The notes below the pieces were generated by a model. The model did not search any database and was not told the origin of the DNA. It saw only the letters and a list, made by a program, of their open reading frames with translations. From NCBI GenBank assembly GCA_041652815.1, contig JBAZGN010000001.1:253855-317854 (forward strand): a stretch of DNA of 64,000 nucleotides, given 5' to 3'. The stretch is from Candidatus Omnitrophota bacterium (GTDB lineage Bacteria; Omnitrophota; Gorgyraeia; Duberdicusellales; 4484-171). The translations under genes and the position numbers were made by a program. Positions 43,890-62,870 of this stretch are shown here, in pieces. Position 1 is the first letter of the stretch; the number at the start of each line of letters is the position of its first letter.

Positions 43890-44687
43890 ATGGAAAAAAA
43901 ATATTTATTAAACTGCCCGGTTTGCGAAAACAAGAACTGGAGTAAGGTTTATCATATAAATCTCTGGGACATCGAGGAGTGCGGGAAATGTGGTTTTGCA
44001 AAAATTAACCCACTACCTTCCCGGGATAATCGGCAGCTGTGTTATTCAAAAGAGGAAGTTGTTGCCAGAAATGCCAAAAAAAAATCTTTTTCCCGGGATC
44101 TTTCGCGAGCCATGAAGCGCTTCTTCAGTAAGATAACGAAACGGAACAAAAGCGAAATATTTTATAACAAATTACGCAAACATCTTTCGCCGCAGGCAAA
44201 AATTTTAGATATCGGTTGCGGTGATGGTAGTTTCCTGCGGCTTGCGAAAGGCCAGTTCAGCTGCGCCGGTATTGAAATATCAGAATACCTGGCGTCTTTA
44301 GCCAGAACAATCGACGGCGCAGATATTAAATGGGGGAATTTTCTCGACACAGAATTTAAGGGTGAAACATATGACGCAATCACGCTTATATCGCTACTTG
44401 AGCATTTAGATGACCCTTTTAGCGCGCTTAAGAAGTGTTTTAACCTTCTCAACAAGAACGGAATTTTATTGTTGAAAACCGTAAACTACGGCTGCCTAAA
44501 CCGGAAAATAAAAAAGGAAAAATGGACAGGATTTCGCCCGCCCGATCATGTTGTGTATTTTTCGCCGCATAACCTCTCACGGATTCTTGAAGGGGCAGGG
44601 TTTAGCAAAATAAAAGTAAAAGCCTGGCCGTTTAACGATAATATGTATTGCGATGCTTTTAAATACACAGATGATCGCAGATTTTGA
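43890..44687 (+). CDS. Class I SAM-dependent methyltransferase with N-terminal Zn-ribbon
   Basis: CPVCENKNW...CGKCGF; LDIGCGDGSFL motif I. The last 7 codons (YTDDRRF*) are supplied by the flanking repeat element. Confidence 0.7.
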   Translation: MEKKYLLNCPVCENKNWSKVYHINLWDIEECGKCGFAKINPLPSRDNRQLCYSKEEVVARNAKKKSFSRDLSRAMKRFFSKITKRNKSEIFYNKLRKHLSPQAKILDIGCGDGSFLRLAKGQFSCAGIEISEYLASLARTIDGADIKWGNFLDTEFKGETYDAITLISLLEHLDDPFSALKKCFNLLNKNGILLLKTVNYGCLNRKIKKEKWTGFRPPDHVVYFSPHNLSRILEGAGFSKIKVKAWPFNDNMYCDAFKYTDDRRF

Positions 44688-44830
44688 GAAAGTATCACGT
44701 AACAAGTATCCTCGCCGCCATATAAAAACATTTAGGCGAGTCCACTTGGGTGGAGGTAACACGCCTTAAAAAAACGTGATACATGTTACGTGTGACGTGA
44801 TACGTAATCTGTGCTAATCTGCGTAACAAA
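44665..44830. repeat. MITE-like element, family B (CACAGATGATCGCAGAT...GTGATACGTAATCTGTGCTAATCTG). Copies at 51417..51598 and, inverted/diverged, 52903..53117.
   Basis: About 150 bp nearly identical to 51417..51575. Contains internal CGTAAC/GTTACG-rich inverted repeats. Confidence 0.75.
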
Positions 44831-44998
44831 GCGATTGACAAAATAGATTTAGTCTTTAAAATAAACCACAGTTTACATACCAAAGACTAGGGTTCGCGAA
44901 GAAACAACAAATTTATACGAGTTTCGCGAAGCAAATTTCAATTGAAATTAGTTGAAAATAAGAAATTAATAGAAATTATTGTCTTTAGTGCGCTAACT

Positions 44999-45073
44999 GT
45001 CCCCATCGTCTAGCCTGGTTCAGGACATCGCCCTTTCACGGCGACGGCGCCAGTTCAAATCTGGCTGGGGACG
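44999..45073 (+). tRNA. tRNA-Glu (TTC)
   Basis: GTCCCCA/TGGGGAC acceptor stem; anticodon loop CTTTCAC; T-loop TTCAAAT. Confidence 0.8.
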
Positions 45074-45420
45074 TATATTAAATCAACCAGTTCACCCCGT
45101 ACCAGAACTCGCTACGCTCGTTCGGTACGGGACTCAATTCGCACTATCATTTTTTCTGCGCCACTTGCGGCTTGGAAAAATGATGTGCTCATTGAGAATC
45201 TGGCTGGGGACGTATATTAAATCAACCAGTTCACCCCGTACCAGAACTCGCTATGCTCGTTCGGTACGGGACTCAATTCGCACTATCATTTTTTCTGCGC
45301 CACTTGCGGCTTGGAAAAATGATGTGCTCATTGAGAATCTGGCTGGGGACGCGTATTAAACATCAATACCAGTTCACCCCGTACCAGAACGCTCAATACA
45401 AGTCTCAACGTACCTTGGTC
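45074..45420. repeat. 139-bp tandem direct repeat (two full units and a diverged third), each ending with a copy of the tRNA-Glu 3' end (atctggctggggacg)
   Basis: Units 45074..45212 and 45213..45351 differ by 1 nt. The third partial unit diverges after ~45. tRNA 3'-end copies lie at 45197..45212 and 45336..45351. Confidence 0.85.
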
Positions 45421-45579
45421 TAGCCCGCGCTTAGTAAACTCTTTTATTGACTTTTAAAAAGGGGTATGGTAAATTTATATGGTTTACCAATGTTAACGGA
45501 TAAATAGGTATGATTACTTTTGTTAACCAGATTGATTTAGTTAACAATAGATAACCATTTTAAGCACAAGAGGTGGAAA

Positions 45580-45849
45580 ATGGAAAAAGGCGAATATTTT
45601 AGTATAGCTCAAGTGGCGAAGATTCTAAAGATAAGCAGGATAGCGGTTTATAAAAAAGTAAAAAAGGGGGAAATGGCGGCGATAAGAATTGGAAAAATTT
45701 ATGCTATCCCCAAAGAGAATATTCTACGAAAAATTAGAAAAATTAAGGGGCATACTTTAAGCTCCGAAGATGTGGAAAGGATAAAACGCGCCGTAGATAA
45801 GACCATAAAAGATTATGGCGAGGTGTTAAAGAAACTGGGGTCGGAGTAA
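45580..45849 (+). CDS. Excisionase-family (HTH_17/Xis-type) DNA-binding protein; probable antitoxin
   Basis: FSIAQVAKILKISRIAVYKKVKKGEMAAIRIGKIYAIPKE is a typical Xis/MerR-like HTH. The stop overlaps the downstream ATG (TAATG). Confidence 0.55.
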   Translation: MEKGEYFSIAQVAKILKISRIAVYKKVKKGEMAAIRIGKIYAIPKENILRKIRKIKGHTLSSEDVERIKRAVDKTIKDYGEVLKKLGSE

Positions 45850-46292
45850 TGGATAGAATTACAGTAAGAGAAGTTGAGCAAATAGCCTTTTTTATTGCTC
45901 AACAAAAATTTTCTTTTGATGAACCAATACCTGATTTTACTACAAGGTATCCGGGCATCTTAGAGAGCTGCTTAGAAACTCCTTTTCAAACTTTTGGGCG
46001 AAAAGAGCTCTATCCAACATTCATTAGTAAACTTAGTATATTGTTTTATTTGATGACCAAAAACCACCCATTTCAAAACGGAAACAAAAGGGTAGCTATG
46101 ACAACTTTATTTTTTGCATTATATGCAGAAAATAAATGGCTAAAGGTTGACGCGCAAACGCTATATAATTTTGCAGTGTGGATAGCTGAGAGCCCTTCTA
46201 ACGCAAAAGATGAGGTAGTGCGGTATATAGAGAAATTTCTAAAAACTTACATCGTTCCTTTGGACAACAAAAAAGAAAACAAACAGACATAA
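45849..46292 (+). CDS. Fic/Doc-family (death-on-curing) toxin
   Basis: HPFQNGNKRVAMTTLFFAL matches the Doc/Fic motif HxFx(D/N)GNKR; 147 aa. Confidence 0.7.
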   Translation: MDRITVREVEQIAFFIAQQKFSFDEPIPDFTTRYPGILESCLETPFQTFGRKELYPTFISKLSILFYLMTKNHPFQNGNKRVAMTTLFFALYAENKWLKVDAQTLYNFAVWIAESPSNAKDEVVRYIEKFLKTYIVPLDNKKENKQT

Positions 46293-46386
46293 ATTAAACT
46301 ATACTTAATGTTTAATGGTATTTTTGTTTGACTTCCGCGATTTGAGAGATATAATTTACAACAAATTCCTGAACACTTATTAAATT

Positions 46387-46842
46387 ATGCAACCAAAGAA
46401 AAAACCTATTGGCGTAATAATCCTTGGCACTTTTAATCTGGTAGTGCTAGGCATAATCCAGCTTATAACGTTTCTTATTCCGCGAAATTGGCAAATAATA
46501 GAAAAAATGCTTAAAGACAGCGGTATCAATATAAATTTGTCTCCGGCCTTGATAAAAATAATGATTATCGTGCAGAGCGCAATGTCCCTGATTTTTATTA
46601 TTTCCGGAGCGGGGCTGCTTTTTCGTAAAGAATGGGCGAGAAAGCTCACTATATATTTTGCTTTTACTATGGCTGCGCTGATACTGCTTTCAGTGTTACT
46701 GTCCCCGGCATCTATACAGCAAGCGATATTACAGATAATCTATCCCGGAGTTCTGATCATTTATTTTACTAATAAAAATATCGAAGATTATTTTAGAAAC
46801 GCAGATAATCGCGAATTGAAAATCGCAGACGATCACAGATAA
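46387..46842 (+). CDS. Hypothetical membrane protein (about 4 TM)
   Basis: Hydrophobic segments; no recognisable motif. The last codons overlap the left terminus (CACAGATAA) of the next repeat element. Confidence 0.4.
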   Translation: MQPKKKPIGVIILGTFNLVVLGIIQLITFLIPRNWQIIEKMLKDSGININLSPALIKIMIIVQSAMSLIFIISGAGLLFRKEWARKLTIYFAFTMAALILLSVLLSPASIQQAILQIIYPGVLIIYFTNKNIEDYFRNADNRELKIADDHR

Positions 46843-47004
46843 ATTTCACTATAATTGATATACGATAGAAATACGGTTGATATACAGTAGATATACAATT
46901 GTATTTCTACTGTATATCGCGAGCGGAGCGAGCGCATATCAACGGTATATCTATCTCATTTCTTATCTGCGATCATCTGTTTTGTGTCTGTGATTATCTG
47001 TGTG
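46831..47004. repeat. MITE-like element, family A (central 20-bp-arm palindrome GATATACAGTAGATATACAA|TTGTATTTCTACTGTATATC). Copies at 54960..55112 and, inverted, 62684..62870.
   Basis: Termini CACAGATAA...TTATCTGCGATCATCTG..GATTATCTGTGTG. The internal module ttcactataattgatatacgatagaaatacgg is shared with the other copies. Confidence 0.75.
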
Positions 47005-47025
47005 TAAAACAAAATAAACAAAAAT

Positions 47026-48855
47026 ATGTGCGGAATACTTGGTTATATCGGAAAAGAAAGAGCGCTTGGTACATTTCTGGATGGCTTATCAAGGCTTGAG
47101 TATAGAGGCTATGACTCCTGCGGTGTGGTTGGCATAAAAGAAGGAGAATTCTTTCTTAAAAAACAGCCGGGGAAAATCCACGAGCTTCGCAGCGAATTAA
47201 AAGATTTTCTTGAGGAAAAATTTCCCATAGGAATTTTCCACACGCGTTGGGCAACCCATGGCCGTCCAAGCCAGGCGAATGCACATCCTCACCTTGATTG
47301 CAAAAGCCAAATAGCCATAGTGCATAACGGAATTATCGAGAATTACCTTAAGCTTAAGGAAGCTTTGATAAAAGAGGGGCATAAATTCATAAGCGAAACC
47401 GATACGGAAGTAGTTGCCCACCTGATAGAAAAGTTTTACAAAGGTTCGCTCAGGGAAGCCGTCTGTAAGGCCATAAAAAACCTTCATGGTTCTTTTTCCT
47501 TGGGGGTCATTTCAATAAAAGACCCTACGCGTTTAATTGCCGTCAGAAAGGGCAGCCCTTTGATTGTGGGATTAAGCAAAGATGGGAATTTTATCGCTTC
47601 AGACATTCCCGCGATATTGCCTTTTGCAAAAGAGGTAGTGTATTTAAAGGACGAAGAAATAGCGGTTATAAGCCACAATGCAGTTAAAATTTTTAATTTT
47701 AAAGGGGCGCCGGTAAAACTTGAGATAGAAAGAATTAACATTAAACCTCAGGATGCCGAGAAAAAAGGCTTTGAGCATTTCATGCTTAAAGAAATTCACG
47801 AGCAGCCGGAAGCGTTAAAAAGAATACTTTCTTTATATGTAAAAAGAAATGCCATAGAATTTCCTTATCTTAATCTGGATGAGAAATATTTTAAGTCGCT
47901 TAAAAATATTTTTATTACTGCTTGCGGCACTGCTTACCATGCCGGTTACATCGCTAAATATTTTTTGGAAAAGCATTGCGATGTGGACGTAGAAATAGAT
48001 ACTTCATCAGAATTCCGTTACCGGACCCTTAACATAACAAAAAACGATTTGCTTCTTACTATTTCTCAATCAGGGGAAACCGCAGATACTTTGGCTGCGG
48101 TGAGAGATATAGAAAGGCACGGAGTTAAAATCGTAAGTATTTGTAACGTTGAAGGCTCAACCTTGGCCAAAGAAAGCGACGGCATTATCTTTACTCACGC
48201 CGGTCCTGAAATAGGGGTTGCTTCGACAAAGGCTTACACCGCTCAAATTATGGTGCTGGTTTTACTGGCATTATATATAGGTAAAACAAGAAAAACAATC
48301 ACGGAGAAAGACTTTAAAGCCATGCTTGGCGAACTTAATATGATACCCGAGCATCAGAAGGATATTTTGGCAAAGACAGGCGAAATTAAAAAAATCGCCA
48401 AAGAGTTTTCAAAATTCGGATGTTTCCTGTTTTTGGCACGAGGCATAAATTATCCATCAGCTCTTGAGGGCGCTCTTAAACTAAAAGAAATTTCTTATAT
48501 ACCGGCGGAAGGTTATCCCGCCGGGGAGATGAAGCACGGACCCATTGCTTTGATTGATGAGTACAGGGGGGTTGTGTGCATAGCGCCCAAGGATTTTCTT
48601 TATGAAAAAATGATTTCCAATATGCAGGAAATAAAAGCAAGAAAGGGGAAAGTTCTTGCGATAGTAAATTATGGAGATAGTGAAGCAGTACGGTTAAGTG
48701 ATGCGGTAATCCACTGCCCCCAGCTTAAAAACAGCGATTTTTCCCCCATGCTTGTTGCAGTGGGCCTGCAGCTTTTTGCCTATTATGTCGCAAAGAATTT
48801 AAACTGTGAAATAGACCAGCCGAGAAATCTGGCAAAATCGGTTACAGTAGAATAA
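47026..48855 (+). CDS. glmS: Glutamine--fructose-6-phosphate aminotransferase
   Basis: MCGILGYIG N-terminal Cys; two SIS domains; 609 aa. Confidence 0.95.
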   Translation: MCGILGYIGKERALGTFLDGLSRLEYRGYDSCGVVGIKEGEFFLKKQPGKIHELRSELKDFLEEKFPIGIFHTRWATHGRPSQANAHPHLDCKSQIAIVHNGIIENYLKLKEALIKEGHKFISETDTEVVAHLIEKFYKGSLREAVCKAIKNLHGSFSLGVISIKDPTRLIAVRKGSPLIVGLSKDGNFIASDIPAILPFAKEVVYLKDEEIAVISHNAVKIFNFKGAPVKLEIERINIKPQDAEKKGFEHFMLKEIHEQPEALKRILSLYVKRNAIEFPYLNLDEKYFKSLKNIFITACGTAYHAGYIAKYFLEKHCDVDVEIDTSSEFRYRTLNITKNDLLLTISQSGETADTLAAVRDIERHGVKIVSICNVEGSTLAKESDGIIFTHAGPEIGVASTKAYTAQIMVLVLLALYIGKTRKTITEKDFKAMLGELNMIPEHQKDILAKTGEIKKIAKEFSKFGCFLFLARGINYPSALEGALKLKEISYIPAEGYPAGEMKHGPIALIDEYRGVVCIAPKDFLYEKMISNMQEIKARKGKVLAIVNYGDSEAVRLSDAVIHCPQLKNSDFSPMLVAVGLQLFAYYVAKNLNCEIDQPRNLAKSVTVE

Positions 48856-48861
48856 GTCTAC

Positions 48862-48925
48862 AGTCCATAGACCATAGTCCACAGTAGAAAACTATGGACT
48901 ATCGACTGTGGACTATGGACTAGAA
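48862..48925. terminator. Long inverted repeat / hairpin between glmS and rsmI
   Basis: agtccatagaccatagtccacagtag aaaa ctatggactatcgactgtggactatggact. Confidence 0.4.
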
Positions 48926-48926
48926 T

Positions 48927-49607: not shown

Positions 49608-49639
49608 GTTGTTCTTGACATTTCCTGCTATATAAGGTA

Positions 49640-49865
49640 TATTCTATAAAACCTTTAAGTCGGTCCAGAGAGGCTGGTAAGGGGAAAAAATGAATATAAT
49701 ACTATACAAAAACAACAACCCTGTACCCAAAAAGTACGGGGTATTTTTTTTAATGAGGCAGCAACTTTTCAAGGCGAAGACGACGAAAAGTTGCGTAGCC
49801 GAATTAACCCTGTACCGTGCGAACAAAGTGAGCTCTGGTACAGGGTTAAGAGCTAAGCCATAAAC
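49640..49865 (+). promoter_or_regulatory. pyr operon leader with PyrR-binding loop and attenuator
   Basis: GTCCAGAGAGGCT at 49662..49674 (PyrR binding-loop consensus). Hairpin ccctgtac-ccaaaaa-gtacgggg plus T-run at 49718..49751. A second 12-bp-stem hairpin taaccctgtacc...ggtacagggtta at ~49805..49847. Confidence 0.7.
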
Positions 49866-49867
49866 GT

Positions 49868-51416: not shown

Positions 51417-51598
51417 CACAGATGATCGCAGATTTTGAGAAAGTATCACGTAACAAGTATCCTCGCCACCATATAAAAACATTTAGGCGAGTCCACTTGG
51501 AGTGGAGGTAACACGCCTTAAAAAACGTGATACCTGTTACGTGTGACGTGATACGTAATCTGTGCTAATCTGTTTTTCAATCTGTGATTATCTGTGTG
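51417..51598. repeat. MITE-like element, family B copy 2
   Basis: Begins 3 nt after the pyrB stop with cacagatgatcgcagat. Ends at gattatctgtgtg, 22 nt before the pyrC ATG. Confidence 0.75.
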
Positions 51599-51619
51599 AG
51601 CCGAACGAAGTGAGGCGAA

Positions 51620-52924
51620 ATGAAACTATTAATTAAAAACGGGCACGTAATTTCCCCGGCTGACAATTTAAATGAGATTTATGATATTTTGGTGCAGGAT
51701 AACAAAATATCCAAAATTGGCAGGAACTTAAAAGAAATCGCCGACAACACAATTGATGCCAAAGATAAAATAGTTATACCAGGTATAGTTGATATGCACG
51801 TGCATTTAAGAGAGCCGGGCAGGGAAGATAAAGAAACTATTTCCTCAGGCACGCAGGCTGCCCTCGCCGGGGGAGTGACCAGCATAGTTAGTATGCCTAA
51901 TACTCTTATCCCGATAGACTCAATCGAAAACGTAAAACTCCTTAAGGGTATTATAGAAAAAAAATCCCAAGCAAATGTTTTTATCTGCGCCGCAATCACG
52001 AAGGACAGAGTGGGAAGAGAATTAACAAATATAGCAAGATTTAAGAAAGAAGGTATTGTTGCTATTTCTGATGATGGCGCTTCAGTGGATAATGCTGATG
52101 TGATGTTAAAAGCGCTTAAGAAGGCAAAAGACACAAGGGTAACCGTAATCTGCCACTCGGAGGATAAATTCCTTTCTGCAGGCGGAGTAGTTAACCTAGG
52201 GTTTACATCAACCAAGATGGGGCTGCGTGGAATTTCCAAGGAATCAGAGTATAAGAGGGTAAGGCGGGACATAGAACTGGCAGAAAGAATAGATGCGCCT
52301 ATACATATTACTCACGTAAGTTGCCTTGAGTCAGTTGAGATAATTGCTAAAGCAAAAAAGAAAGGTGTAAAGGTAACCGCTGATACGGCACCGCATTATT
52401 TTTCTGTTTCCGAGGAAGCTGTCTGGGGTTACGATACAAATTTGAAAATGAACCCGCCGCTAAGAACAAAAGAAGATGTTTTAGCGATAAGGGACGGATT
52501 AAAACAGGGCGTAATCGATGTAATAGCTTCAGACCATGCGCCGCATACCGAGAATGAAAAAGAAATTGAATTCGAGCGTGCAGAATTCGGAGTGATAGGG
52601 CTTGAGACCGAACTCTCTGCTGCAATTACCTATCTTGTTGAGGGGAAAGTTCTGGATATGGTTGAGCTGGTCAAAAAAATAACCATAAATCCCGCAAAAA
52701 TTTTGGGGATAAATAGAGGCACTCTCAGCACAGGTAAACCCGCGGATATTACTGTAATTTCAAAAGACAAAGAATGGGTTGTAAGGCGCGACCGGTTTTT
52801 TTCGAAATCAAAAAACAGCGCATTTTTGGGCAAAACACTTAAAGGCGTTGTTGAGTACACTATTTTAGGTGGACGAATAGTTTATGTGAATAACGCAGAT
52901 GATCACCGATTGGGAAGCAGATGA
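51620..52924 (+). CDS. pyrC: Dihydroorotase
   Basis: DMHVHLREPG; VISDHAPH; 434 aa. The C-terminal codons (...ADDHRLGSR*) run into the next repeat element. Confidence 0.85.
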   Translation: MKLLIKNGHVISPADNLNEIYDILVQDNKISKIGRNLKEIADNTIDAKDKIVIPGIVDMHVHLREPGREDKETISSGTQAALAGGVTSIVSMPNTLIPIDSIENVKLLKGIIEKKSQANVFICAAITKDRVGRELTNIARFKKEGIVAISDDGASVDNADVMLKALKKAKDTRVTVICHSEDKFLSAGGVVNLGFTSTKMGLRGISKESEYKRVRRDIELAERIDAPIHITHVSCLESVEIIAKAKKKGVKVTADTAPHYFSVSEEAVWGYDTNLKMNPPLRTKEDVLAIRDGLKQGVIDVIASDHAPHTENEKEIEFERAEFGVIGLETELSAAITYLVEGKVLDMVELVKKITINPAKILGINRGTLSTGKPADITVISKDKEWVVRRDRFFSKSKNSAFLGKTLKGVVEYTILGGRIVYVNNADDHRLGSR

Positions 52925-53117
52925 TCACCGATTTGAGAAAGTATCAGGTAACAGGTATCACGTAACACGTCATTGGATAAACAGAGAATTTAAAAAGACG
53001 CGGTACGTCCACTCAAAGTGGACTCGCCTAAATATTTTTATATGGTGGCGAGGTTACGTGCGGCGTGGTACATAACCTATCTGTGCTCATCTGCGATTTG
53101 AATCTGTGCTAATCTGT
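52903..53117. repeat. MITE-like element, family B copy 3 (inverted orientation, diverged)
   Basis: cagatgatcaccgat...gtatcacgtaacacg...gtggactcgcctaaatattttta is the reverse complement of family-B internal sequence. It ends ...aatctgtgctaatctgtgt at the ATG of the next gene. Confidence 0.65.
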
Positions 53118-53119
53118 GT

Positions 53120-53605
53120 ATGAAGTTTATAGTTACAAGGGAATTAGGGAAGCTTGTAAGGTGGTTAAGAATTATAGGGTTTGATGCGGTTTTTTACGAC
53201 AAAGAAAGTAAGGGCACGCTTATAATCCAAGCCTTGCGCGATGATAGAATAATTGTTACAAGGACCAAAGAAAGAATAGACGACTTGCAAAAGAAAACAA
53301 TAGTTGTAACTTGCGATAATGTAAAAGAGCAGCTGCAAGAAGTTATTGGAAAATTAAAACTTAAAATCGAAGAAGAAAAAATGTTTAGCCGCTGCACGTT
53401 ATGTAATGAGCTGCTTGTAGCGGCTAAAAAGGAAGAGGTTAAAGAACTTATCCCGGAACGTGTCTATAACCAGCAAACAGCTTTTAAAAAATGCTCCGCT
53501 TGCGGCAAGGTTTACTGGCAGGGAAGCCATTTGGCCAAGGTTAGCGCCATTGTGAACGAATTTCAGAGAACAGACAACAGAAAACAGAGAACAGAGGGAA
53601 AATAA
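53120..53605 (+). CDS. Mut7-C RNase domain (PF01927/DUF82-like) protein with C-terminal Zn-ribbon
   Basis: MKFIVTRELGKLVRWLRIIGFDAV...; C-terminal CTLCNELL...CSACGKVYWQGSH. Confidence 0.6.
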   Translation: MKFIVTRELGKLVRWLRIIGFDAVFYDKESKGTLIIQALRDDRIIVTRTKERIDDLQKKTIVVTCDNVKEQLQEVIGKLKLKIEEEKMFSRCTLCNELLVAAKKEEVKELIPERVYNQQTAFKKCSACGKVYWQGSHLAKVSAIVNEFQRTDNRKQRTEGK

Positions 53606-53659
53606 ATGCAGAGGACAGAAGACAGAAGGACGAGGGACGATAAAATTTCTAAAATCGTT

Positions 53660-53702
53660 TCTTCTGCGATCATCTGTTTTGTAATCTGTGATCATCTGTG
53701 TG
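53660..53702. repeat. Short terminus-only copy of the CACAGAT/ATCTGTG element
   Basis: tctgcgatcatctgttttgtaatctgtgatcatctgtgtg, 22 nt upstream of the next ATG. It is preceded by ACAGA-rich repeats at 53560..53640. Confidence 0.6.
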
Positions 53703-53724
53703 AACCGAGCGAAGCGAGGAAAAA

Positions 53725-54959: not shown

Positions 54960-55112
54960 GCACAAATGAACGCAGATTAGCACAGATAAATTTCACTATA
55001 ATTGATATACGATAGAAATACGGTGGAAACACAGTAGATATACAATCGTATTTCTACTGTATATCGCGAGCGGAGCGAGCGTATTTCAACCGTGTTTCTA
55101 TTTCTTATCTGT
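54960..55112. repeat. MITE-like element, family A copy 2
   Basis: cacaaatgaacgcagattagcacagataaatttcactataattgatatacgatagaaatacgg...acacagtagatatacaatcgtatttctactgtatatcgcgagcggagcgagcg...ttatctgtgg. Confidence 0.75.
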
Positions 55113-55649
55113 GGCAATTTGGTTCAAACCCGCGCTAATTTATGTAAAACAAATATGAAAGTAGCGATAATTTCTTATTCATTTTCCGGTAATACCAAAA
55201 GAGCGTGTGTGTTTTTGATGGAAAAAATCAAAGAAAAAAATATTGAGGCAGCCATATTTGATTTAAAACCGTCCCGGGAAGAAAAAAAATTTTTGCTGCA
55301 ATGCCGTGATGCTTTCTATAAACACAAAATAGAAATTCAGAACCCAGTTTCTGAACTAAATACTTATGATTTTGTAATTTTCGCATCTCCGGTATGGGCG
55401 TTTACTTTTGCACCGGCGTTGCGCGCCTATTTGGAAAACATAAAAGATTTAACCGATAAAAAATGCGCCTGCTTTTTAACCTATGGCAGCGGCATGGGGA
55501 AGAACAAGGCCTTAGAAGAGTTAGAGGAGATTTTAAAAGCAAAAGGCGCACGGATTTTATTTTCCAAAAACATACCTGGGTCTAAAACTAAAGATAAAGA
55601 ATATTTAGAGGAACAGTTTAAATCTTTGGTAGATATAATTAGTGATTAA
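55092..55649 (+). CDS. Flavodoxin-like protein (probable true start 55155, MKVAIISYS)
   Basis: MKVAIISYSFSGNTKRACVFL (flavodoxin-type FMN-binding N-terminus). Confidence 0.5.
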   Translation: MFLFLICGNLVQTRANLCKTNMKVAIISYSFSGNTKRACVFLMEKIKEKNIEAAIFDLKPSREEKKFLLQCRDAFYKHKIEIQNPVSELNTYDFVIFASPVWAFTFAPALRAYLENIKDLTDKKCACFLTYGSGMGKNKALEELEEILKAKGARILFSKNIPGSKTKDKEYLEEQFKSLVDIISD

Positions 55650-55795
55650 GGTTACGAATGTTACGAAAGTTACGCAGGTTACGAAGGTTACAATAAACCT
55701 TCGATATTTGAAATGTAACATTCGTAACTTCCCGTAACCTGCCTCGCCTTGCTCGGCAAGGCGGGCATCCGCAACCTTCGTAACAGGATTATTTA
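55650..55795. repeat. GTTACGA heptad tandem repeats (5 units) with a partially inverted copy and a GC hairpin
   Basis: ggttacgaatgttacgaaagttacgcaggttacgaaggttac ... tgtaacattcgtaacttcccgtaacc ... ccttgctcggcaagg. Confidence 0.7.
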
Positions 55796-55798
55796 ATT

Positions 55799-55870
55799 GT
55801 CCCTGTAGCCCAACGGATAGGGCGTTGGCCTCCGGAGCCAAAAATGGCAGTTCGATTCTGCCCAGGGACG
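55799..55870 (+). tRNA. tRNA-Arg (CCG)
   Basis: GTCCCTG/CAGGGAC acceptor stem; D-arm GCCC-AACGGATA-GGGC; anticodon loop CTCCGGA; T-loop TTCGATT; 72 nt. Confidence 0.8.
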
Positions 55871-55952
55871 CGAATAAAATAAGGATTATGTAACACGTAA
55901 CAAGTAGCACGTTTTAGGCTTGTTACCTGTTACGTGATACATGAAATAAAAA

Positions 55953-56408: not shown

Positions 56409-56470
56409 CCAAAATATATTAACCGACTATAACAATAAAACAATTTTTCCAACGGAGAAAGGGAGGTATT

Positions 56471-59400
56471 ATGCCAAGGAGGAAAGATATAAAAAAAGTT
56501 TTAATTATCGGTTCCGGCCCCATCATTATCGGCCAGGCTTGCGAATTTGATTATTCGGGAACGCAAGCTTGTAAAGCTTTACGTGAAGAAGGTTATGAGA
56601 TAGTGCTGGTTAATTCAAACCCGGCAACCATTATGACTGACCCGGGCATGGCAGATAAAACCTATATTGAGCCGCTTACCGTAGAAAGCTTAGGAAAAAT
56701 TATAGAACGCGAAAAGCCCGATGCGTTACTTCCTAATCTTGGCGGGCAAACCGGGCTTAACCTTGCATCCAGCCTTCATAAAGCCGGTATTTTAAAAAAA
56801 TACGGCGTGGAAATTATCGGAGTAAAAGCTGATGCTATTGAACGCGGCGAAGACCGGCTTGCCTTTAAAGAAACCATGAATAAGCTTGGCATCGGCCTGC
56901 CGAAATCAGAAATTTGCCACTCCACAGAAGAAGCAGAAAAAATAGCCGAGGGCTTAGGCTATCCAGTAATAGTCAGGCCAGCATATACTTTGGGCGGAAC
57001 CGGCGGTGGCATTGCTTATAACGTGGAGGAGCTACGCATAATTACAAATAGGGGGATAAGCGCCAGCCTTATTCATCAGGTGTTGATAGAAGAATCAGTA
57101 TTAGGATGGGAAGAACTTGAACTTGAAGTAGTAAGGGACCAGAAAAACAATAAAATTACTGTTTGTTTTATTGAGAATATCGACCCGATGGGCGTACACA
57201 CCGGAGATAGTTTTTGCGCTGCGCCAATGCTTACGGTTCCTGAAAAATTACAGAAAAAAATGCAGGAGCTTTCCTATAAAATAGTTGACGCTATCGGAGT
57301 TGTCGGCGGGACAAACATACAATTCGCGCATAACCCCGAAGATGATAGATTGGTTGCCATTGAAATTAATCCAAGAACGTCTCGTTCTTCAGCCCTTGCC
57401 TCAAAAGCAACCGGATTTCCTATCGCACGCATTTCTACAAAGCTTGCCGCAGGCCTTAGTATGGATGAAATACCTTACTGGCGTAGGGGAACGCTTGAAA
57501 AATACGAGCCAAGCGGCGATTACGTAGTCATAAAATTTGCGCGCTGGGCATTTGAGAAATTCCGCCAGGCAAAAGACATTTTAGGCACACAAATGAAAGC
57601 TGTCGGCGAAGTAATGAGCATCGGAAAAAATTTTAAAGAAGCAATGCAAAAATCCATACGCTCTTTGGAAATAGGCAGATATGGCTTAGGAGTTAAAAAG
57701 TTTAAAGAAATAGATTTAGCAGCCTTAAAAGAAAGATTAAGATTTCCTTCCAGCGAGCGCATTTTTCTAATGTATGAGGCGCTACGCAGAGGCGTTTCCA
57801 TCGAAGAGCTTTATCAAATGACGCATATCGGCCGTTGGTTTATTAATGAGATGAAAGATTTGGTTGTTTACGAAGAGGAGTTATTAAAATTTAAATGGAG
57901 CGAGTTACCGGACAAAAAACTCATTAAAGCTAAAGAATGGGGGTTTTCCGACAGGTATTTAGGCGAGCTTTTCGGCGTAAAAGAAAAAACTGTGCGTGAA
58001 AAAAGAATTGCTTTAGGCAAAGAGGAAAAATTTAATGCCGTTCCCGTAAGCGGTGTTGACAACGCAGCTTATTATTATTCTACATATAATGCTAATGATG
58101 AGGTTCCGGTTTCCGACAAAAAGAAAGTAATGATTTTAGGCGGCGGGCCAAACCGTATCGGCCAGGGTATTGAATTTGATTACACCTGCGTTCACGCTGC
58201 TTTTGCTTTACGTGACGAAGGCCTTGAGTCCATAATGGTTAACTGTAACCCGGAAACGGTCTCAACCGATTATGACACATCCAATAAACTTTATTTCGAA
58301 CCCTTAACCGTTGAAGACGTGCTGGCGATTTACGAAAAAGAAAAGCCTGAAGGCGTAATTGTGCAATTCGGCGGCCAGACCCCTTTAAATATCGCCCAGC
58401 AATTAAAAGATAACGGTGTTAAAATTTTAGGAACTTCTCCGGAAAGCATCCGCCTTGCCGAGGACAGAGAATATTTTAGAGAGAGGATTAAAAAATTAGA
58501 CATTCCGCAACCGGACGGTGATGCTGCGCGTTCGCTCGATGATGCGATTAAGATTGCAAACCGCATCGGCTACCCCTTAATGGTGCGGCCGTCATTTGTT
58601 TTGGGAGGCCGCGGAATGGAAGTTGTTTATGACGAGGCGATGCTTAGAAAATATGCCGAAGAAGCAATCGAGATTACGCCGGAATTTCCAATGTTGATTG
58701 ACCGTTTTCTGGAGCAGGCAATTGAAACCGAGGTTGATGCGCTTTGTGACGGTGAAAATACTTTTGTCGCTGCAATAATGGAACACATCGAGCTTGCCGG
58801 AGTGCACTCGGGGGATTCTGCCTGTGCAATACCCCCACGCACAATTCCGGAAAAACATTTAAAAACAATTGAGGATTACACAGCTAAAATCGCCAAAGAC
58901 CTTAAAGTTGTAGGCCTTATGAATATTCAGTACGCAATCTGCAATGACAAAGTTTATATTTTAGAGGCAAACCCGCGCGCGTCCCGCACTGTTCCGGTAG
59001 TTTCTAAAGTAACAGGAATATCTATTGCGCGTATTGCCACGCTTCTTATGCTTGGCAAAAAAATAAAAGATTTTCCAGAGTTGAAAAAAATCAAACTTCC
59101 TTACACCGGAGTTAAAGAAGCAGTATTCCCCTTTAATATGTTTCCGGAAGTTGACCCTATCTTGGGCCCGGAAATGCGCGCAACAGGAGAAGTTATGGGC
59201 ATGGGCGATAGTTTTGGCCTGGCGTTTTGTAAATCTCAGGAGGCAACCGGCTTACAGCTTCCCGAAAAAGGCAATGTGCTGATTACGGTTGCGGACAGAG
59301 ACAAAAAACATATTGTTCCGGTCGCAAAAAAGCTAAAAAAATTAGGGTTTAATATTTATGCTACCAAAAGAACAAGCGCGGTGTTAAAAGAAAACGGAGT

Positions 59401-59671
59401 AGAAAACATTGAAATAAGCAAAATTGATGAAGGCAGGCCTGACATCTCAGATTTTATTAAAAACAAAGAGCTGCACTTAATTATTAACACTCCTCTCGGC
59501 CCAAGCGGCAAACAGGATGATGCTTATATTCGCAGAATGGCGATACAATACAAAGTCCCTTATATTACTACAGTCGCAGCAGCAGCGGCAAGTGTGGAAG
59601 GTATTGAGGCGATGCAAAAACAGAAAGATTCACCCAAGTCTTTACAGGAATATCATAAGATGATTAAGTAA
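56471..59671 (+). CDS. carB: Carbamoyl-phosphate synthase large subunit
   Basis: 1066 aa; duplicated ATP-grasp halves (VLIIGSGPIIIGQACEFDYSG / VMILGGGPNRIGQGIEFDY); MGS-like C-terminus. Confidence 0.95.
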   Translation: MPRRKDIKKVLIIGSGPIIIGQACEFDYSGTQACKALREEGYEIVLVNSNPATIMTDPGMADKTYIEPLTVESLGKIIEREKPDALLPNLGGQTGLNLASSLHKAGILKKYGVEIIGVKADAIERGEDRLAFKETMNKLGIGLPKSEICHSTEEAEKIAEGLGYPVIVRPAYTLGGTGGGIAYNVEELRIITNRGISASLIHQVLIEESVLGWEELELEVVRDQKNNKITVCFIENIDPMGVHTGDSFCAAPMLTVPEKLQKKMQELSYKIVDAIGVVGGTNIQFAHNPEDDRLVAIEINPRTSRSSALASKATGFPIARISTKLAAGLSMDEIPYWRRGTLEKYEPSGDYVVIKFARWAFEKFRQAKDILGTQMKAVGEVMSIGKNFKEAMQKSIRSLEIGRYGLGVKKFKEIDLAALKERLRFPSSERIFLMYEALRRGVSIEELYQMTHIGRWFINEMKDLVVYEEELLKFKWSELPDKKLIKAKEWGFSDRYLGELFGVKEKTVREKRIALGKEEKFNAVPVSGVDNAAYYYSTYNANDEVPVSDKKKVMILGGGPNRIGQGIEFDYTCVHAAFALRDEGLESIMVNCNPETVSTDYDTSNKLYFEPLTVEDVLAIYEKEKPEGVIVQFGGQTPLNIAQQLKDNGVKILGTSPESIRLAEDREYFRERIKKLDIPQPDGDAARSLDDAIKIANRIGYPLMVRPSFVLGGRGMEVVYDEAMLRKYAEEAIEITPEFPMLIDRFLEQAIETEVDALCDGENTFVAAIMEHIELAGVHSGDSACAIPPRTIPEKHLKTIEDYTAKIAKDLKVVGLMNIQYAICNDKVYILEANPRASRTVPVVSKVTGISIARIATLLMLGKKIKDFPELKKIKLPYTGVKEAVFPFNMFPEVDPILGPEMRATGEVMGMGDSFGLAFCKSQEATGLQLPEKGNVLITVADRDKKHIVPVAKKLKKLGFNIYATKRTSAVLKENGVENIEISKIDEGRPDISDFIKNKELHLIINTPLGPSGKQDDAYIRRMAIQYKVPYITTVAAAAASVEGIEAMQKQKDSPKSLQEYHKMIK

Positions 59672-59759
59672 CACAGATAATTACAGATTGGAAATCTCAG
59701 ATGATCGCAGATGATTTATCTGTGATTATCTGCTTCCGAATCTGTGGTTATCTGTGTAA
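59672..59759. repeat. Short CACAGAT/ATCTGTG element (both termini, ~88 bp)
   Basis: acacagataattacagattgg...cagatgatcgcagatgatttatctgtgattatctgc...tctgtggttatctgtgtaatgg. Confidence 0.65.
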
Positions 59760-60283
59760 TGGAGCGAAGCGGCATGCTGAATAAAGAAGAGATAAAAAAA
59801 ATAATCAACGAGAAAAAATTAATCGAAGGCCACATCGATTTAGAAATCCAACTTACTCCGAATGGTTTTGATTTGACTGCAGGAAAAATTTACGAATTCG
59901 ATGCCCCCGGAGCGGTAGATTTTTCCAACAAAGAAAGAATTGTGCCGGAAGGTAAAGAGCTCATTCCAAAAAAGAAAAATCCAGCAGATAAATTCGGCTG
60001 GTGGGAATTAAAAACAGGCGCGTATAAGGTAAGAACAAACGAAACAGTTAATCTTCCGAATGATTTAGTAGCCCAAGCTTTTACCCGCACAACGCTTCTA
60101 CGTATGGGTGCTTTTACCCAGCACGGCGTATGGGACGCCGGCTTCAGAGGCCGCGGAGAATTTGTTTTAATCGTCGGTAACCCCCATGGGATAAAGATAA
60201 AACAAAACGCCCGCATCGCTCAGCTTGTGTTTCTGCCGACAAAAGAAACAGAAAGTTATAAAGGGATATATAATAATATATAG
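59744..60283 (+). CDS. dcd: dCTP deaminase/dUTPase-superfamily protein (true start probably an internal Met near 59762-59777)
   Basis: ...GVWDAGFRGRGEFVLIVGNPHGIKIKQNARIAQLVF (Dcd-like DxGxxG motif). Confidence 0.55.
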   Translation: MVICVMERSGMLNKEEIKKIINEKKLIEGHIDLEIQLTPNGFDLTAGKIYEFDAPGAVDFSNKERIVPEGKELIPKKKNPADKFGWWELKTGAYKVRTNETVNLPNDLVAQAFTRTTLLRMGAFTQHGVWDAGFRGRGEFVLIVGNPHGIKIKQNARIAQLVFLPTKETESYKGIYNNI

Positions 60284-60284
60284 T

Positions 60285-60432
60285 TATAATAACCAAGCTC
60301 CAAGATACAATAACCAAACAATGACCAATAATCAAATTCCAATAACCAAACAAAAAACAGTATCTCCGTTTGGTTATTGGATATTGGAATTTGAATATTG
60401 TTTGTATCTTGTATCTTGGTTATTGGTTATTT
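60285..60432. repeat. MITE-like CCAATAACCAA palindromic element, copy 2
   Basis: ataaccaagctccaagatacaataaccaaac...ccaataaccaaacaaaaaacag...gtttggttattgg...ttgtatcttgtatcttggttattggttatt. Confidence 0.65.
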
Positions 60433-60832
60433 AATCATGAATACAATAGAAGTCAAAACTACAAAACGAAATGAATTTGTAGATATAACTTCCAAGGTAG
60501 AAAAAATTGTCAAAGATTCGAAAATAAAAGACGGACTCTGTGTTGTTTTTTGCCCGCATACAACAGCGGCTTTAACTATTAACGAAAATGCCGACCCCTC
60601 AGTTCAAAAAGATATCATTAGCCACCTTGAAGAATTAGTTCCTGCCGGTAAAGGTTTTTCTCATTCAGAGGGCAACTCTGATGCGCACATTAAGGCTTCT
60701 CTTTTGGGCAGCTCCTTAAATGTTATAATCAAAGACGGGAACTTAGCTCTCGGCACCTGGCAGGGGATTTATTTCTGCGAGTTTGACGGGTCAAGACAGC
60801 GACAAATATATGTAAAAATAATAGAAATGTAA
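60398..60832 (+). CDS. YjbQ/UPF0047-family protein (probable start 60437, MNTIEVKT)
   Basis: GLCVVFCPHTTAALTINENADPSV...SDAHIKASLLGSSLNVIIKDGNLALGTWQGIYFCEFDG. Confidence 0.65.
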   Translation: MFVSCILVIGYLIMNTIEVKTTKRNEFVDITSKVEKIVKDSKIKDGLCVVFCPHTTAALTINENADPSVQKDIISHLEELVPAGKGFSHSEGNSDAHIKASLLGSSLNVIIKDGNLALGTWQGIYFCEFDGSRQRQIYVKIIEM

Positions 60833-60884
60833 TAGCCACCGCTTTTCATTTTTGAAATGAGCGGATTATCAAAAGGCCGAAAAA

Positions 60885-61610
60885 ATGGTTGATAATGGTT
60901 TAAATTTTTTAGCAGCCAGCATACTAAAAGAAATGGAACTTCTACCTAAAGGATCCCGACCAAACCTCGAAAAAGACAAGTTAATTCAATTTTTGGAAAA
61001 TATAGACATCAAAGATAGAGAATTATTTATTACATCTATTCTATGCTTTTTTGCTTATTTTAAATCAATAGTTCCTTGTGCAGAAACGCCTGGCACTGCG
61101 TCAATATGGACGAATTATGTTCTGATAACATTATTTGCTTTAGTTGAAAGATCTATGGAAAAAGAGGTATCTTTTTGGAGCTACATAAATAAAGATGAGA
61201 ATATAAAAAGATGCAATAAAGGGGATACAAAAAAGGTTATTGAGGAATGGAGGCAAAAACATGGTTCATCTGAAAAAATACGTAGATTTTTTAAAGAAAA
61301 TATCAAAAAAGAAGAAACAGATGAAATTGAAAAAGTAATCAAGAAGGATCCTAAATTTAAAAATGTGAGTGATATTGATGTTTTTATTACAAAAATTATT
61401 AAACTTAGAGGTGAATTTGTTCATGGTTTATCCTTGGAATGTATAAGTTCTTCGAATATTTATGCTATGTTAGTTCAAGACAAAAATGGAAATTTAATTA
61501 GCGATAATATGCAGTGGGTTAAAACTATTGATATTAACAAATTGATCGCATATATCTTAAAAGGAATCTTCAGAAAATTTGATACTAAAAAAATAGTAAC
61601 TTCGATATAA
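60885..61610 (+). CDS. Hypothetical protein
   Basis: 241-aa ORF, Lys/Glu-rich; no recognisable motif. Confidence 0.35.
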   Translation: MVDNGLNFLAASILKEMELLPKGSRPNLEKDKLIQFLENIDIKDRELFITSILCFFAYFKSIVPCAETPGTASIWTNYVLITLFALVERSMEKEVSFWSYINKDENIKRCNKGDTKKVIEEWRQKHGSSEKIRRFFKENIKKEETDEIEKVIKKDPKFKNVSDIDVFITKIIKLRGEFVHGLSLECISSSNIYAMLVQDKNGNLISDNMQWVKTIDINKLIAYILKGIFRKFDTKKIVTSI

Positions 61611-61878
61611 AAAATAAGGATGTTTCTAATTTTTGAAAATGGATAAATAATTGCATGGATTTCTTTAATGGTTTGATACCTAAACTAAGTTTATGCATTA
61701 CTTGTAAACGCAATGGTGATGTGGAACGGGAAGCTTTCTGCGTATTAAATCGTATGGATCAAAAGGGCAAGGGCGATTTTAAATATGAAGCTTGTGGGCG
61801 GAAGCGAGTAGGATAATGACAGAGCGTTTATCCGCGTATAGCTTTGCGGTAATCCGTCCCTATCATTAAGGAGAAGAT

Positions 61879-62682
61879 ATGCCGGAATTGCCAGAGGTTG
61901 AAACAATTAAACGCGAATTAGAAAAAGCGGTTTTGGGGAAAAAAATCACAAAAGTTTCTGTGATTAACCCGAAAGTAATCAAAGAGCCGTCTCCTAAAGA
62001 ATTCCAAAAAGAAATTGCCGGCGCAACCATAAAAAATATTCTGCGAAAAGCAAAATTGCTGATTATTGAATTATCAAATGGCAAGTTTCTGGCAATCCAT
62101 CTTAAAATGACCGGTCAATTAATTTATCCGGGAAAAGGCTCTAAGCTTACAAGAGTTATTTTTAGCTTGTCTTCCGGTAAAGATTTAGATTTTAATGACG
62201 GCCGCTTGTTTGCGGAATTACGGCTGGTTGATGATTGGCAGAAATTAAAATTTATTCAAAGCTTGGGCCCGGAACCTTTTGATTTATCGTGCGAGCATTT
62301 TAAAAAAATGCTCGCCTCTAAAAAAACAAAGATAAAACCGCTTTTACTGGATCAAACATTTATTTCCGGTGTTGGCAATATTTACGCCAACGAAGCGCTG
62401 TTTCGCGCAAAAATCAACCCCGGCAGGCCGGCAAATAGCTTGTCGCAAAAGGAAAAAGAGCTCCTTTTTAATGAACTAAAAGAAACACTTAAAGAGGCAA
62501 TTGCCCATAAAGGTTCATCCGTTGACCAATATGTCCAGCTTTCCGGTGAAGATGGCGGTTACGCAAAGTACCACAAGGTTTACGATAGAGAAAAAAAGCC
62601 CTGTTTAAAATGTAAAATCCCTATCCAGCGAATAAGTTTAGGCGGCCGCGGCACATATTTTTGCCCGCACTGCCAAGCGTAA
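61879..62682 (+). CDS. mutM: Formamidopyrimidine-DNA glycosylase
   Basis: MPELPEVET N-terminal catalytic Pro/Glu; C-terminal Zn finger CLKCKIPIQRISLGGRGTYFCPHCQ. Confidence 0.85.
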   Translation: MPELPEVETIKRELEKAVLGKKITKVSVINPKVIKEPSPKEFQKEIAGATIKNILRKAKLLIIELSNGKFLAIHLKMTGQLIYPGKGSKLTRVIFSLSSGKDLDFNDGRLFAELRLVDDWQKLKFIQSLGPEPFDLSCEHFKKMLASKKTKIKPLLLDQTFISGVGNIYANEALFRAKINPGRPANSLSQKEKELLFNELKETLKEAIAHKGSSVDQYVQLSGEDGGYAKYHKVYDREKKPCLKCKIPIQRISLGGRGTYFCPHCQA

Positions 62683-62683
62683 A

Positions 62684-62870
62684 ACACAGATGATCGCAAA
62701 TAAGAAGATAGAAATACAGTTGAAACACGCTCGCTTTGCTCGCGAAATACAGTAGAAATACAATTGTATATCTACTGTATATCCACCGTATTTCTATCGT
62801 ATATTAATTACAGTGGAATTTATCTGTGATCATCTGCTCTCCAATCTGTGGTCATCTGTGTAATAAAACA
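62684..62870. repeat. MITE-like element, family A copy 3 (inverted orientation)
   Basis: cacagatgatcgcaaataag...aatacagtagaaatacaattgtatatctactgtatat...ccgtatttctatcgtatattaattacagtggaatttatctgtgatcatctgc..tctgtggtcatctgtgtaat. Confidence 0.75.

Follow-up and report, generated by a model that had tools for sequence, protein, structure and literature searches.

Intergenic CACAGAT hairpins in an Omnitrophota genome: probable gene-less derivatives of hairpin-bracketed GxxExxY elements

Eight intergenic spacers in a 64,000-nucleotide stretch of a Candidatus Omnitrophota genome (assembly GCA_041652815.1, contig JBAZGN010000001.1, positions 253,855 to 317,854 of the forward strand; the whole stretch is called the window here) are occupied by elements whose arms are built from short units with the core CACAGAT. 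These elements are probably derivatives, devoid of an open reading frame (ORF) and thus similar to miniature inverted-repeat transposable elements (MITEs), of a small selfish element that is bracketed by hairpin arms; its full form would carry the gene for a GxxExxY protein of ~130 amino acids (aa), and it would belong to the class of the intervening sequences (IVSs) of 23S rRNA. The evidence comes from arrays of the same units that enclose GxxExxY genes in other genomes, and from the gene junctions of close relatives.

The eight elements and the junctions that they fill

An earlier note on this DNA, made from the sequence alone, had described elements with CACAGAT...ATCTGTG ends in at least eight intergenic spacers. 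Direct reading together with repeat finding confirmed eight. The sequence CACAGATRAT occurs seven times in the window, every time inside 44.6-62.9 kb, where 0.2 occurrences are expected from shuffles, and the 7-mer units C[AG]CAGAT / ATCTG[TC]G cluster at the same sites. The elements lie within a run of co-oriented housekeeping genes (methyltransferase, tRNA-Glu, glmS, rsmI, pyrR, pyrB, pyrC, Mut7-C, EndoQ, carB, dcd and mutM), 9-27 kb from the presumed origin of replication, which dnaA (35927), dnaN, yidC, parA and a switch in GC skew place near 35.1-35.9 kb. Where folds are given below, MFE is the minimum free energy and z-scores were computed against mononucleotide shuffles.

B1, 44666-44823, + strand: two-unit left arm (CACAGATGAT CGCAGAT), nested B loop, right arm with the inner two units only; MFE -52.5, z -5.1
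A1, 46800-47002, + strand: arms of 4+4 units and a nested A loop; MFE -74.4, z -7.9
B2, 51417-51619, + strand: arms to 51596, then a GAGCCGAACGAAGTGAGGCGAA block up to the pyrC ATG; MFE -70.3, z -8.6
B3, 52894-53118, - strand: whole-element inversion of B1/B2 with an extra insert of 18 nt
S5, 53560-53724, + strand: intact right arm (53655-53700) and a GAACCGAGCGAAGCGAGG block, with a degenerate, ACAGA-rich left side
A2, 54961-55140 (element to 55113), + strand: three-unit left arm, A loop, decayed right arm
M7, 59672-59773 (hairpin to 59756), + strand: mini copy of arms only, with a TAATGGAGCGAAGCGGC block before the dcd ATG; MFE -49.1, z -13
A3, 62685-62860, - strand: whole-element inversion of A1/A2, with two units on the mutM side and four on the pabB side

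All eight fold into long hairpins, seven of them with z-scores of -5 to -13; the fold of S5 is weak (z -2.6 on the + strand, -1.1 on the - strand). The termini had been taken as one and the same inverted repeat. The ends are indeed inverted, but each terminus is an array of two to four ten-bp units (CRCAGAT+NNN, the NNN being mostly A-rich), usually laid out as two units, a step of 12-13 bp and two further units (2+2). The number of units differs from copy to copy, and the right arms of B1 and A2 and the left arm of S5 are truncated or decayed. Families A and B have three copies each: B1 and B2 are 98-99% identical over ~150 bp and the A copies 88-90% (A3 is 90% identical to A1; A2, 89%). Since B3 and A3 are reversed end to end, the elements are present in both orientations; an invertible switch formed by the inner segment of B3 was rejected, as the entire element aligns in reverse. 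The internal modules, too, are nested hairpins, made of short tandem units of another kind: 11-bp GAWATAC units in A and ACGTGATAC/GTAAC units in B. The A1 loop combines the GAWATAC units with a central palindrome and a (GAGCG)n core, and ACGTGATAC/GTAAC units also stand alone beside tRNA-Arg (55881-55945).

The insertions span from just past the upstream stop to just before the downstream start, in agreement with the earlier description of elements abutting stop and start codons, and some overlap the upstream gene. B1 covers the last seven codons and the stop of the methyltransferase ORF (43890-44687), the left arm of A1 supplies the last 14 codons of a membrane-protein ORF (46387-46842), the left arm of B3 (in + coordinates) encodes the last codons of pyrC, and the degenerate left side of S5 forms the tail of Mut7-C. 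The alternative C-terminal codons reported before (...YTDDRRF, ...ADDHR and, for pyrC, ...NADDHRLGSR, each followed by the stop) are correct. On the other side, the right arm of B3 stops 1 nt short of the Mut7-C ATG. The conserved block said to follow the right termini is present as a GAGCGAAGCGAGG-like block after B2, S5 and M7, whereas the A-type copies have GTAAAACAAA-ATG instead; the GAGCCGAACGAAGTGAGGCGAA block of B2 includes a GAGG that resembles a ribosome-binding site. The idea that the elements supply promoters or terminators found no backing: sigma-70 promoter-like consensus sites (43 versus 45.9 expected) and intrinsic-terminator-like sites (19 versus 21.2 expected) are not in excess in the elements. 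A search of the window and 18 hairpin-bearing loci against Rfam at gathering thresholds returned only tRNA, tmRNA and unrelated matches and no family for the arrays. By the same search no rRNA lies in the window; all copies stand between protein-coding or tRNA genes.

Syntenic loci of relatives were fetched via EndoQ homologues (L125/L126 with 96% aa identity, L122/L123 with 86% and L124 with 79%), and a further relative locus, L210, was added from the metagenome pattern scan described below. The pyrB-pyrC spacer measures 205 nt in the window (including the GAGCCGAACGAAGTGAGGCGAA block) and 1 nt in L125 (TAA-A-ATG); the two genes overlap in L122, and L124 has another hairpin between them. At most junctions that hold elements in the window, L122 has spacers of 7-41 nt without hairpins. 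The hairpins are thus dispensable. L124 and L125 often have a hairpin at the matching junction, but from wholly different units, among them TCGTTAGTC, CGTATAGCG, AAATTCCAAATCACA, GGTTGCG and CGCGAA; the A2 junction of L125, for example, holds a hairpin of AAATTCCAAATCACA units. At the Mut7-C/EndoQ junction, where the window has S5, a complete CACAGAT hairpin is found in L125/L126 and L210, and in L124 a gene for a four-helix-bundle protein is inserted exactly there. In each lineage upstream ORFs run into the hairpin, which gives them lineage-specific C-terminal tails. Judged from this comparison, the elements are quickly gained, lost and replaced within the space from stop to start codon, and copies have been added to or lost from spacers on the time-scale that separates genomes with 96% identical proteins.

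CACAGAT arrays in other phyla and the genes that they enclose

A four-unit pattern scan of GTDB representative genomes gave at least 120 loci, the matches listed being from Omnitrophota, Patescibacteria, cyanobacteria, Planctomycetota, Chloroflexota, Acidobacteriota, Bacteroidota, Verrucomicrobiota, Spirochaetota and others; for a stricter pattern in metagenomes, too, the matches listed are a minimum. Among the matches listed, the spacing is 10 bp in 416 of 684 units and about half of the arrays are + / - hairpins, nearly always in the order CACAGAT...ATCTGTG. With three tandem units as the pattern, IMG/VR gave 46 loci for the real core against 3 and 8 for permuted cores, which argues that the CACAGAT core is special among decamer arrays.

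Sequence clustering of ORFs of at least 120 aa in 120 pattern-selected loci revealed no recurrent neighbour gene, the clusters being unannotated. GxxExxY ORFs of ~125 aa escaped this clustering and emerged from arms spaced 0.4-1 kb apart. In this search for full-length forms, among loci selected by the terminus pattern, six pairs of a + and a - array enclose a small ORF. Five of the six ORFs encode GxxExxY proteins (TIGR04256 / PF13366 PDDEXK_3; E-values 1e-31 to 1e-42); the sixth codes for a four-helix-bundle "23S rRNA intervening sequence protein" (TIGR02436 / PF05635). With hmmsearch and a profile built from these ORFs, 11 GxxExxY ORFs were detected in the collected loci; all 11 have an array within ~150 bp on at least one side, and seven are enclosed by a left + array and a right - array. 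The candidate partner with the same ends is a PD-(D/E)XK protein of unknown function and not a transposase of the IS200/IS605 or another recognised type, for which the earlier note had proposed to look. PDDEXK_3 has been described as a family of unknown function with "multiple transfers, mixed clades" and spread between phyla (Steczkiewicz et al., PMC3424549).

As the loci above had been selected by their arrays, the association was also approached with the protein as the starting point. Thousands of GxxExxY proteins came out of a profile search, sharing 74-92% identity with the query from Omnitrophota, also where they are assigned to Nitrospira or Endomicrobiales. Six genes were picked by protein similarity alone, on long contigs and with taxonomic spread (Nitrospira, Endomicrobiales, Omnitrophota and unbinned contigs). 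By eye, 2+2 decamer arrays are present on both sides of all six; a strict two-unit regular expression finds both arms in four and one arm in L305 and L308, where the other arm is degenerate. All six genes lie between unrelated, co-oriented housekeeping genes, e.g. E and F of a type II secretion system (T2SS) or H+-PPase and an aminotransferase.

The GxxExxY ORFs start with M-I-(T/A)-D, read as CAG-ATG-ATC-RCA-GAT, so that the ATG lies within the innermost left units, and in four of the seven ORFs examined the TGA stop is in the first right-arm unit (three AAT/TAT-CTG-TGA, one TCT-GCG-TGA). The ends of B1, B2, M7 and A3 read CACAGATGATCGCAGAT or a near variant, which is the start-codon-bearing unit of the GxxExxY ORFs, and M7 retains the ATGATCGCAGAT unit that is elsewhere the start of these ORFs. 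The window copies have kept the start-codon units and lost the ORF; the loop is empty (M7) or holds nested hairpins (A, B). The junction of pyrB and B2, TAA-TA-CACAGATGAT, recurs at the PPase gene in L308. Between L308 and L313, which are otherwise identical, units were lost between repeats, consistent with slippage.

Inverted arrays of units other than CACAGAT enclose the four-helix-bundle genes of L124, L239 (which has three) and L265. These units include AATAACCAA and CGCTATAC-type units, and both types form ORF-less hairpins in the window.

Some arrays have a different architecture. Directly upstream of the GxxExxY gene in L301 (941-2022) stand six tandem CACAGAT mini hairpins, with another downstream; they suggest local serial duplication, and the cluster resembles the local clustering in the window. 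L109 (115-457, Prevotellaceae) and L073 (3640-5211, Melioribacteraceae) have long regular arrays in which blocks of CACAGAT units alternate with other blocks at a period of ~73 or 114-124 bp; on the surface these tandem repeats of entire palindromes are CRISPR-like, and the one in L073 adjoins a GxxExxY gene. A search for GxxExxY in IMG/VR gave only four distant PD-(D/E)XK relatives, and the three examined are without arrays. In cyanobacteria and Abditibacteriota most of the arrays listed are one-armed, of the form (ATCTGTGTTC)n ending in ATCTGTGGTTAAAAA, at the following loci.

Cyanobacteria: L014, L018, L019, L034, L053, L060, L062, L088, L099, L118
Abditibacteriota: L029, L032, L051

These have three or four ATCTGTGTTC units and usually end in ATCTGTGGTTAAAAA or GTAAAAAA, with TCTAAAA in Abditibacteriota; those read closely precede a co-oriented gene by tens of bases, sometimes with ATCTGCG variants nearby.

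For the identity of the units, the DnaA box, the CRP half-site, OmpR/PhoB-type direct repeats and parS were considered and rejected for misfit of sequence or arrangement; the palindromic, dispensable and multi-phylum pattern speaks against an operator as well. An integron attC site is an imperfect palindrome after cassette ORFs, with R''/R' core sites (RYYYAAC / GTTRRRY) and intI adjacent. It was rejected, as the ends here are CACAGAT/ATCTGTG and the flanking genes are syntenic housekeeping genes in relatives, not cassettes. The literature searched on the decamer, on palindromic tandem-repeat elements and on Omnitrophota repeats held nothing relevant, and no account of the arrays or of their link to GxxExxY was found in it; its coverage was incomplete and an earlier description is possible.

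Proposed mechanism and rival explanations

In the mechanism that we propose, an element inserted between two cistrons would be transcribed together with the operon, and RNase III would excise the double-stranded stem, by analogy with 23S rRNA IVSs. Such excision is known for the IVSs of Coxiella, Salmonella and Leptospira (PMC4990558). After the cut the upstream cistron would keep a 3' stem stub, and the downstream one would have its ribosome-binding site free, in some cases the GAGCGAAGCGAGG block brought by the element. Removal of the stem from transcripts would make intercistronic insertion nearly harmless, and therefore the surviving copies would be those that abut stop and start codons. 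The number of units may shift by slippage between repeats. For the step that makes a new copy, the GxxExxY protein, acting in trans as a nuclease on the hairpin or cruciform, is the obvious candidate. The proposed preference for targets next to stop codons would look the same as purifying selection acting on a compact genome, yet the TAA-TA-CACAGATGAT junction does recur at the unrelated gene in L308.

Several observations weigh against this origin. Searches with tblastn and hmmsearch found neither a GxxExxY nor a four-helix-bundle gene, nor a remnant of either, in the ~77 kb of this genome that could be read, i.e. the window plus ~13 kb of extensions (L314 and L001; the latter, an ENA contig 99.9% identical to the window, added 8.7 kb). 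A trans-acting partner in this genome is an unproven candidate, and mobility or an enzymatic role of GxxExxY is putative. CACAGAT arrays are present in many phyla; in the same ~77 kb of this genome none lies outside 44.6-62.9 kb, which may also mean local copying by recombination. Direct repeats that would mark a target-site duplication are not consistently present at the eight window copies, and the flanks of 65 hairpins from other genomes have none and tend to continue the palindrome (..GC/CACAGAT..ATCTGTG/GC..); the ends of the elements are not sharply defined. For a hairpin that acts as RNA rather than DNA, tests gave null results: the sense strand forms the more stable stem in 9 of 19 cases (Wilcoxon p = 0.70), and the R positions show no covariation between the two arms. 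The copy at the Mut7-C/EndoQ junction, common to the window, L125 and L210, is old and vertically inherited. Finally, a hairpin model does not account for the one-armed arrays of cyanobacteria and Abditibacteriota.

The earlier note had read the elements as a recently active family of non-autonomous, MITE-like transposons. Classical MITEs would be deletion derivatives of an insertion sequence (IS) with a DDE transposase, moved by it in trans through cut-and-paste at terminal inverted repeats. Much of what this reading needs is there. The eight copies are short and non-coding, with inverted ends of CACAGAT-unit arms; A and B occur three times each at 88-99% identity (99% for B1/B2) and in both orientations; close relatives differ in presence and absence, with an empty site; and a gene-bearing partner exists. 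Mobility of a non-autonomous, hairpin-forming family in multiple copies is thereby supported. Even the repeated units would not be foreign to it, as the ends of Tn7- and Mu-type transposons carry subterminal repeated motifs. What is missing is the target-site duplication, at the window copies and the 65 other hairpins alike, and a recognised transposase. No transposase-like recurrent neighbour came out of the ORF clustering of the 120 pattern-selected loci, with clusters unannotated, all family-matched ORF-bearing copies encode GxxExxY or four-helix-bundle proteins, and the longer elements with the same ends, none of which lies in the ~77 kb, encode the PD-(D/E)XK protein GxxExxY and not a known transposase. 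The number of units and the position of the ends are variable as well, and a MITE origin in this sense appears quite improbable. Missing target-site duplications would be expected if the elements were of the repetitive extragenic palindrome (REP)/REPIN-like or IS200/IS605 type (palindrome-associated transposable elements, PATE) and moved as single-stranded DNA by a Y1 HUH transposase (RAYT/TnpA); such elements, too, form extragenic hairpins and are confined to extragenic space. However, the arms are built of tandem CACAGAT-core decamers and not of GTAG- or CGTC-tagged REP units of 20-40 bp, and the ORF-bearing partners come from a different protein family. RAYT, TnpA and TnpB were not recurrent on clustering of the 120 pattern-selected loci, no profile search having been aimed at them, and later loci were screened for GxxExxY and four-helix-bundle genes only. 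We regard this explanation as highly improbable.

A further possibility is that no insertion took place and that the hairpins are regulatory structures of the host, i.e. RNA processing or stability signals or operator arrays, which evolved in place and were kept similar by gene conversion and slippage. The relatives lend this some appeal, as the same junctions carry hairpins with differing unit sequences and the position between Mut7-C and EndoQ is kept in the window, L125 and L210. The confinement of the elements to 18 kb of the ~77 kb examined, the spacing of 10 bp, which is one helical turn, and the one-armed arrays upstream of genes in cyanobacteria would fit as well. Against it stand the dispensability of the hairpins, evident from the short spacers of L122 and the 1-nt spacer of L125, the copies of 150 bp that are 99% identical behind unrelated genes, and the same arrays bracketing a horizontally spread ORF in several phyla; promoter and terminator consensus sequences are not enriched, and Rfam gave no match. 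Evolution in place is unlikely.

If the eight elements are indeed ORF-less derivatives of GxxExxY elements, a broader speculation is tempting, which we offer tentatively and hold to be somewhat more likely wrong than right: a single broad class of selfish elements with hairpin arms, spanning phyla, may carry GxxExxY and four-helix-bundle genes as its cargo. The stems would be arrays of short tandem units, with CACAGAT decamers marking the GxxExxY lineage. The elements would colonise rRNA helices and, because a double-strand RNase of the host takes them out of transcripts, the spacers between cistrons as well; they would shed their ORFs and leave many hairpin relics behind, and GxxExxY would be a structure-specific nuclease that propagates the hairpin. 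Were this true, most operon spacers in Omnitrophota would be filled by such relics, nested in one another and contributing C-terminal codons and ribosome-binding sites, and it would be the first biological role proposed for the GxxExxY family. GxxExxY/PDDEXK_3 and the four-helix-bundle 23S-IVS protein are two very common "hypothetical" families of unknown function, and the question of where rRNA intervening sequences come from and how they move has stood open since about 1990. Through the link between array and ORF both matters become testable, as the start and stop of the ORF inside the decamer arrays define the ends of the element. It also puts the same elements inside operons and provides natural ORF-less derivatives and an empty site. 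For the annotation of Omnitrophota and similar metagenome-assembled genomes, it would explain long hairpin spacers, lineage-specific C-terminal tails and mis-called starts.

Other repeats of the window and comparison with known systems

The window contains further hairpins of tandem units, among them the following.

60284-60434: ORF-less sister hairpin of AATAACCAA-type units
33000-33156: second ORF-less hairpin of AATAACCAA-type units, inverted relative to 60284-60434 and adjoining parS-like sites
48856-48924: hairpin of GTCCATAG/GTCCACAG units that fills the glmS-rsmI spacer

Units of the AATAACCAA type directly bracket the four-helix-bundle (23S_rRNA_IVP) gene in L265 as its inner arms. Weak four-helix-bundle matches at 60.3 and 33.0 kb were rejected as gene remnants, since they stem from the AATAACCAA repeat, which codes for the N-terminus of the ORF in L265. 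CGCTATAC-type units, as in L239, form ORF-less hairpins near 27.4 kb, and the glmS-rsmI junction has tandem-unit hairpins of a differing kind in relatives. The YjbQ ORF as called (60398-60832, with a TTG start at 60398 that is also in the ENA annotation of L001) starts within the AATAACCAA hairpin. Comparison with L122 points to the ATG at 60438 as the probable true start, and hairpin relics may commonly cause such miscalls of start codons. The tRNA-Arg gene (55799-55871) is flanked by tandem-unit hairpins at 55648-55790 and 55881-55945, with (AAGGTTACG)n on one side and GTAACACGTAACAAG units, the unit family of the inner arms of module B, on the other; a tmRNA gene of Patescibacteria in L002 is likewise flanked, by two CACAGAT hairpins. 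Outside the region of the eight elements, CAGC/GCTG-rich units make the 70-nt gyrB-gyrA spacer (41294-41363) a near-perfect hairpin (MFE -39, z -8.4) and another member of the tandem-unit class.

The presumed oriC (35112-35926, upstream of dnaA), where the GC skew changes sign, holds two tandem-unit hairpins, of AGAAACCAG units at ~35140-35200 and of GTTGATAGGTT units at ~35700-35800, and TTGTGAAT repeats stand immediately before dnaA. The spacer between parA (32115-32993, - strand) and yidC has four copies of GTTTTCACGTGAAAAC (33190-33710), with a fifth at the 3' end of yidC (33682); this sequence, ~2 kb from the presumed oriC, is a near-perfect palindrome and a putative parS-like site. Upstream of pyrR, at 49640-49745, lies an attenuator of the PyrR type, with a GGTCCAGAGAGGCTGG binding-loop motif, then an intrinsic terminator (49718-49742 plus a T run), and with a strong promoter-like site at 49615; here the Rfam PyrR family stayed below its gathering score. 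The tRNA-Glu gene (44998-45074) is followed by ~2.5 tandem copies of a 139-bp unit (at 45058, 45197 and 45336; 99% identical) that opens with the 3' end of the tRNA, tRNA and repeats together spanning 44998-45400, and then by an HTH_17 / Fic-Doc gene pair (45580-46292), likely a toxin-antitoxin system. Repeats and gene pair together look like what is left of repeated integration at the tRNA, and stretches of the 139-bp unit are found again, inverted, at 28698-28725 and 30299-30379. An inverted repeat of 61 nt and another type than the tandem-unit hairpins (11645-11705 and 14867-14927, 95% complementary, in spacers of 728 and 589 nt) flanks two genes (11795-14545) and could mark an inserted or invertible segment.

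Among known systems, bacterial MITEs and intergenic hairpin repeats (Correia/NEMIS, ERIC, RUP, BOX, Rickettsia palindromic elements) are small, non-coding, multi-copy, intergenic and co-transcribed elements with inverted ends; some extend or enter ORFs, and BOX is modular. The window elements differ from them in the missing target duplication, the arms of variable tandem units, the nested families and a partner candidate that is not a transposase. REP/REPIN elements are extragenic hairpin doublets without target duplications that depend on an enzyme acting in trans, and REPIN-RAYT pairs are largely vertical; here, a REP-type tagged palindrome is absent, and units and ORFs are nearly identical across phyla. 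The mycobacterial interspersed repetitive units (MIRUs) occupy operon spacers, touch stop and start codons and vary in tandem copy number, and in these respects they are like the window elements. They are, however, direct repeats of 46-101 bp, and an ORF-bearing form is not known, whereas the window elements are palindromic.

The closest likeness is to the 23S rRNA IVSs of Coxiella, Leptospira, Salmonella and other bacteria. These have a long stem of inverted ends around an optional small ORF (S23p / four-helix bundle, PF05635), are sporadic and horizontally spread, and their ORFs are prone to decay. In Coxiella the IVS is a stem-loop whose loop contains the S23p ORF. The 5' strand of its stem has GACAGAT in two or three tandem copies, depending on the strain; RNase III cuts at the first repeat, the ORF decays and the origin is horizontal (PMC4990558). 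These stem repeats are very close to the CACAGAT unit, and the copy number varies in both systems. All eight window elements fold into stems, the degenerate S5 more weakly than the other seven; in ORF-bearing relatives the loop encloses GxxExxY where the arms are of CACAGAT units and the four-helix bundle where they are of AATAACCAA or other units. The stems of the window elements are made of ACAGAT-type tandem units (10-bp CRCAGAT, two to four per arm, in variable number). The differences are the location between protein-coding cistrons instead of helix 25 or 45 of 23S rRNA, the GxxExxY (PD-(D/E)XK) ORF in place of S23p with the CACAGAT arrays, and a unit period of 10 bp instead of 7; excision by RNase III would apply here by analogy. 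Taken together, the sequence comparisons suggest that the eight elements fit the IVS class better than the class of insertion sequences and MITEs.

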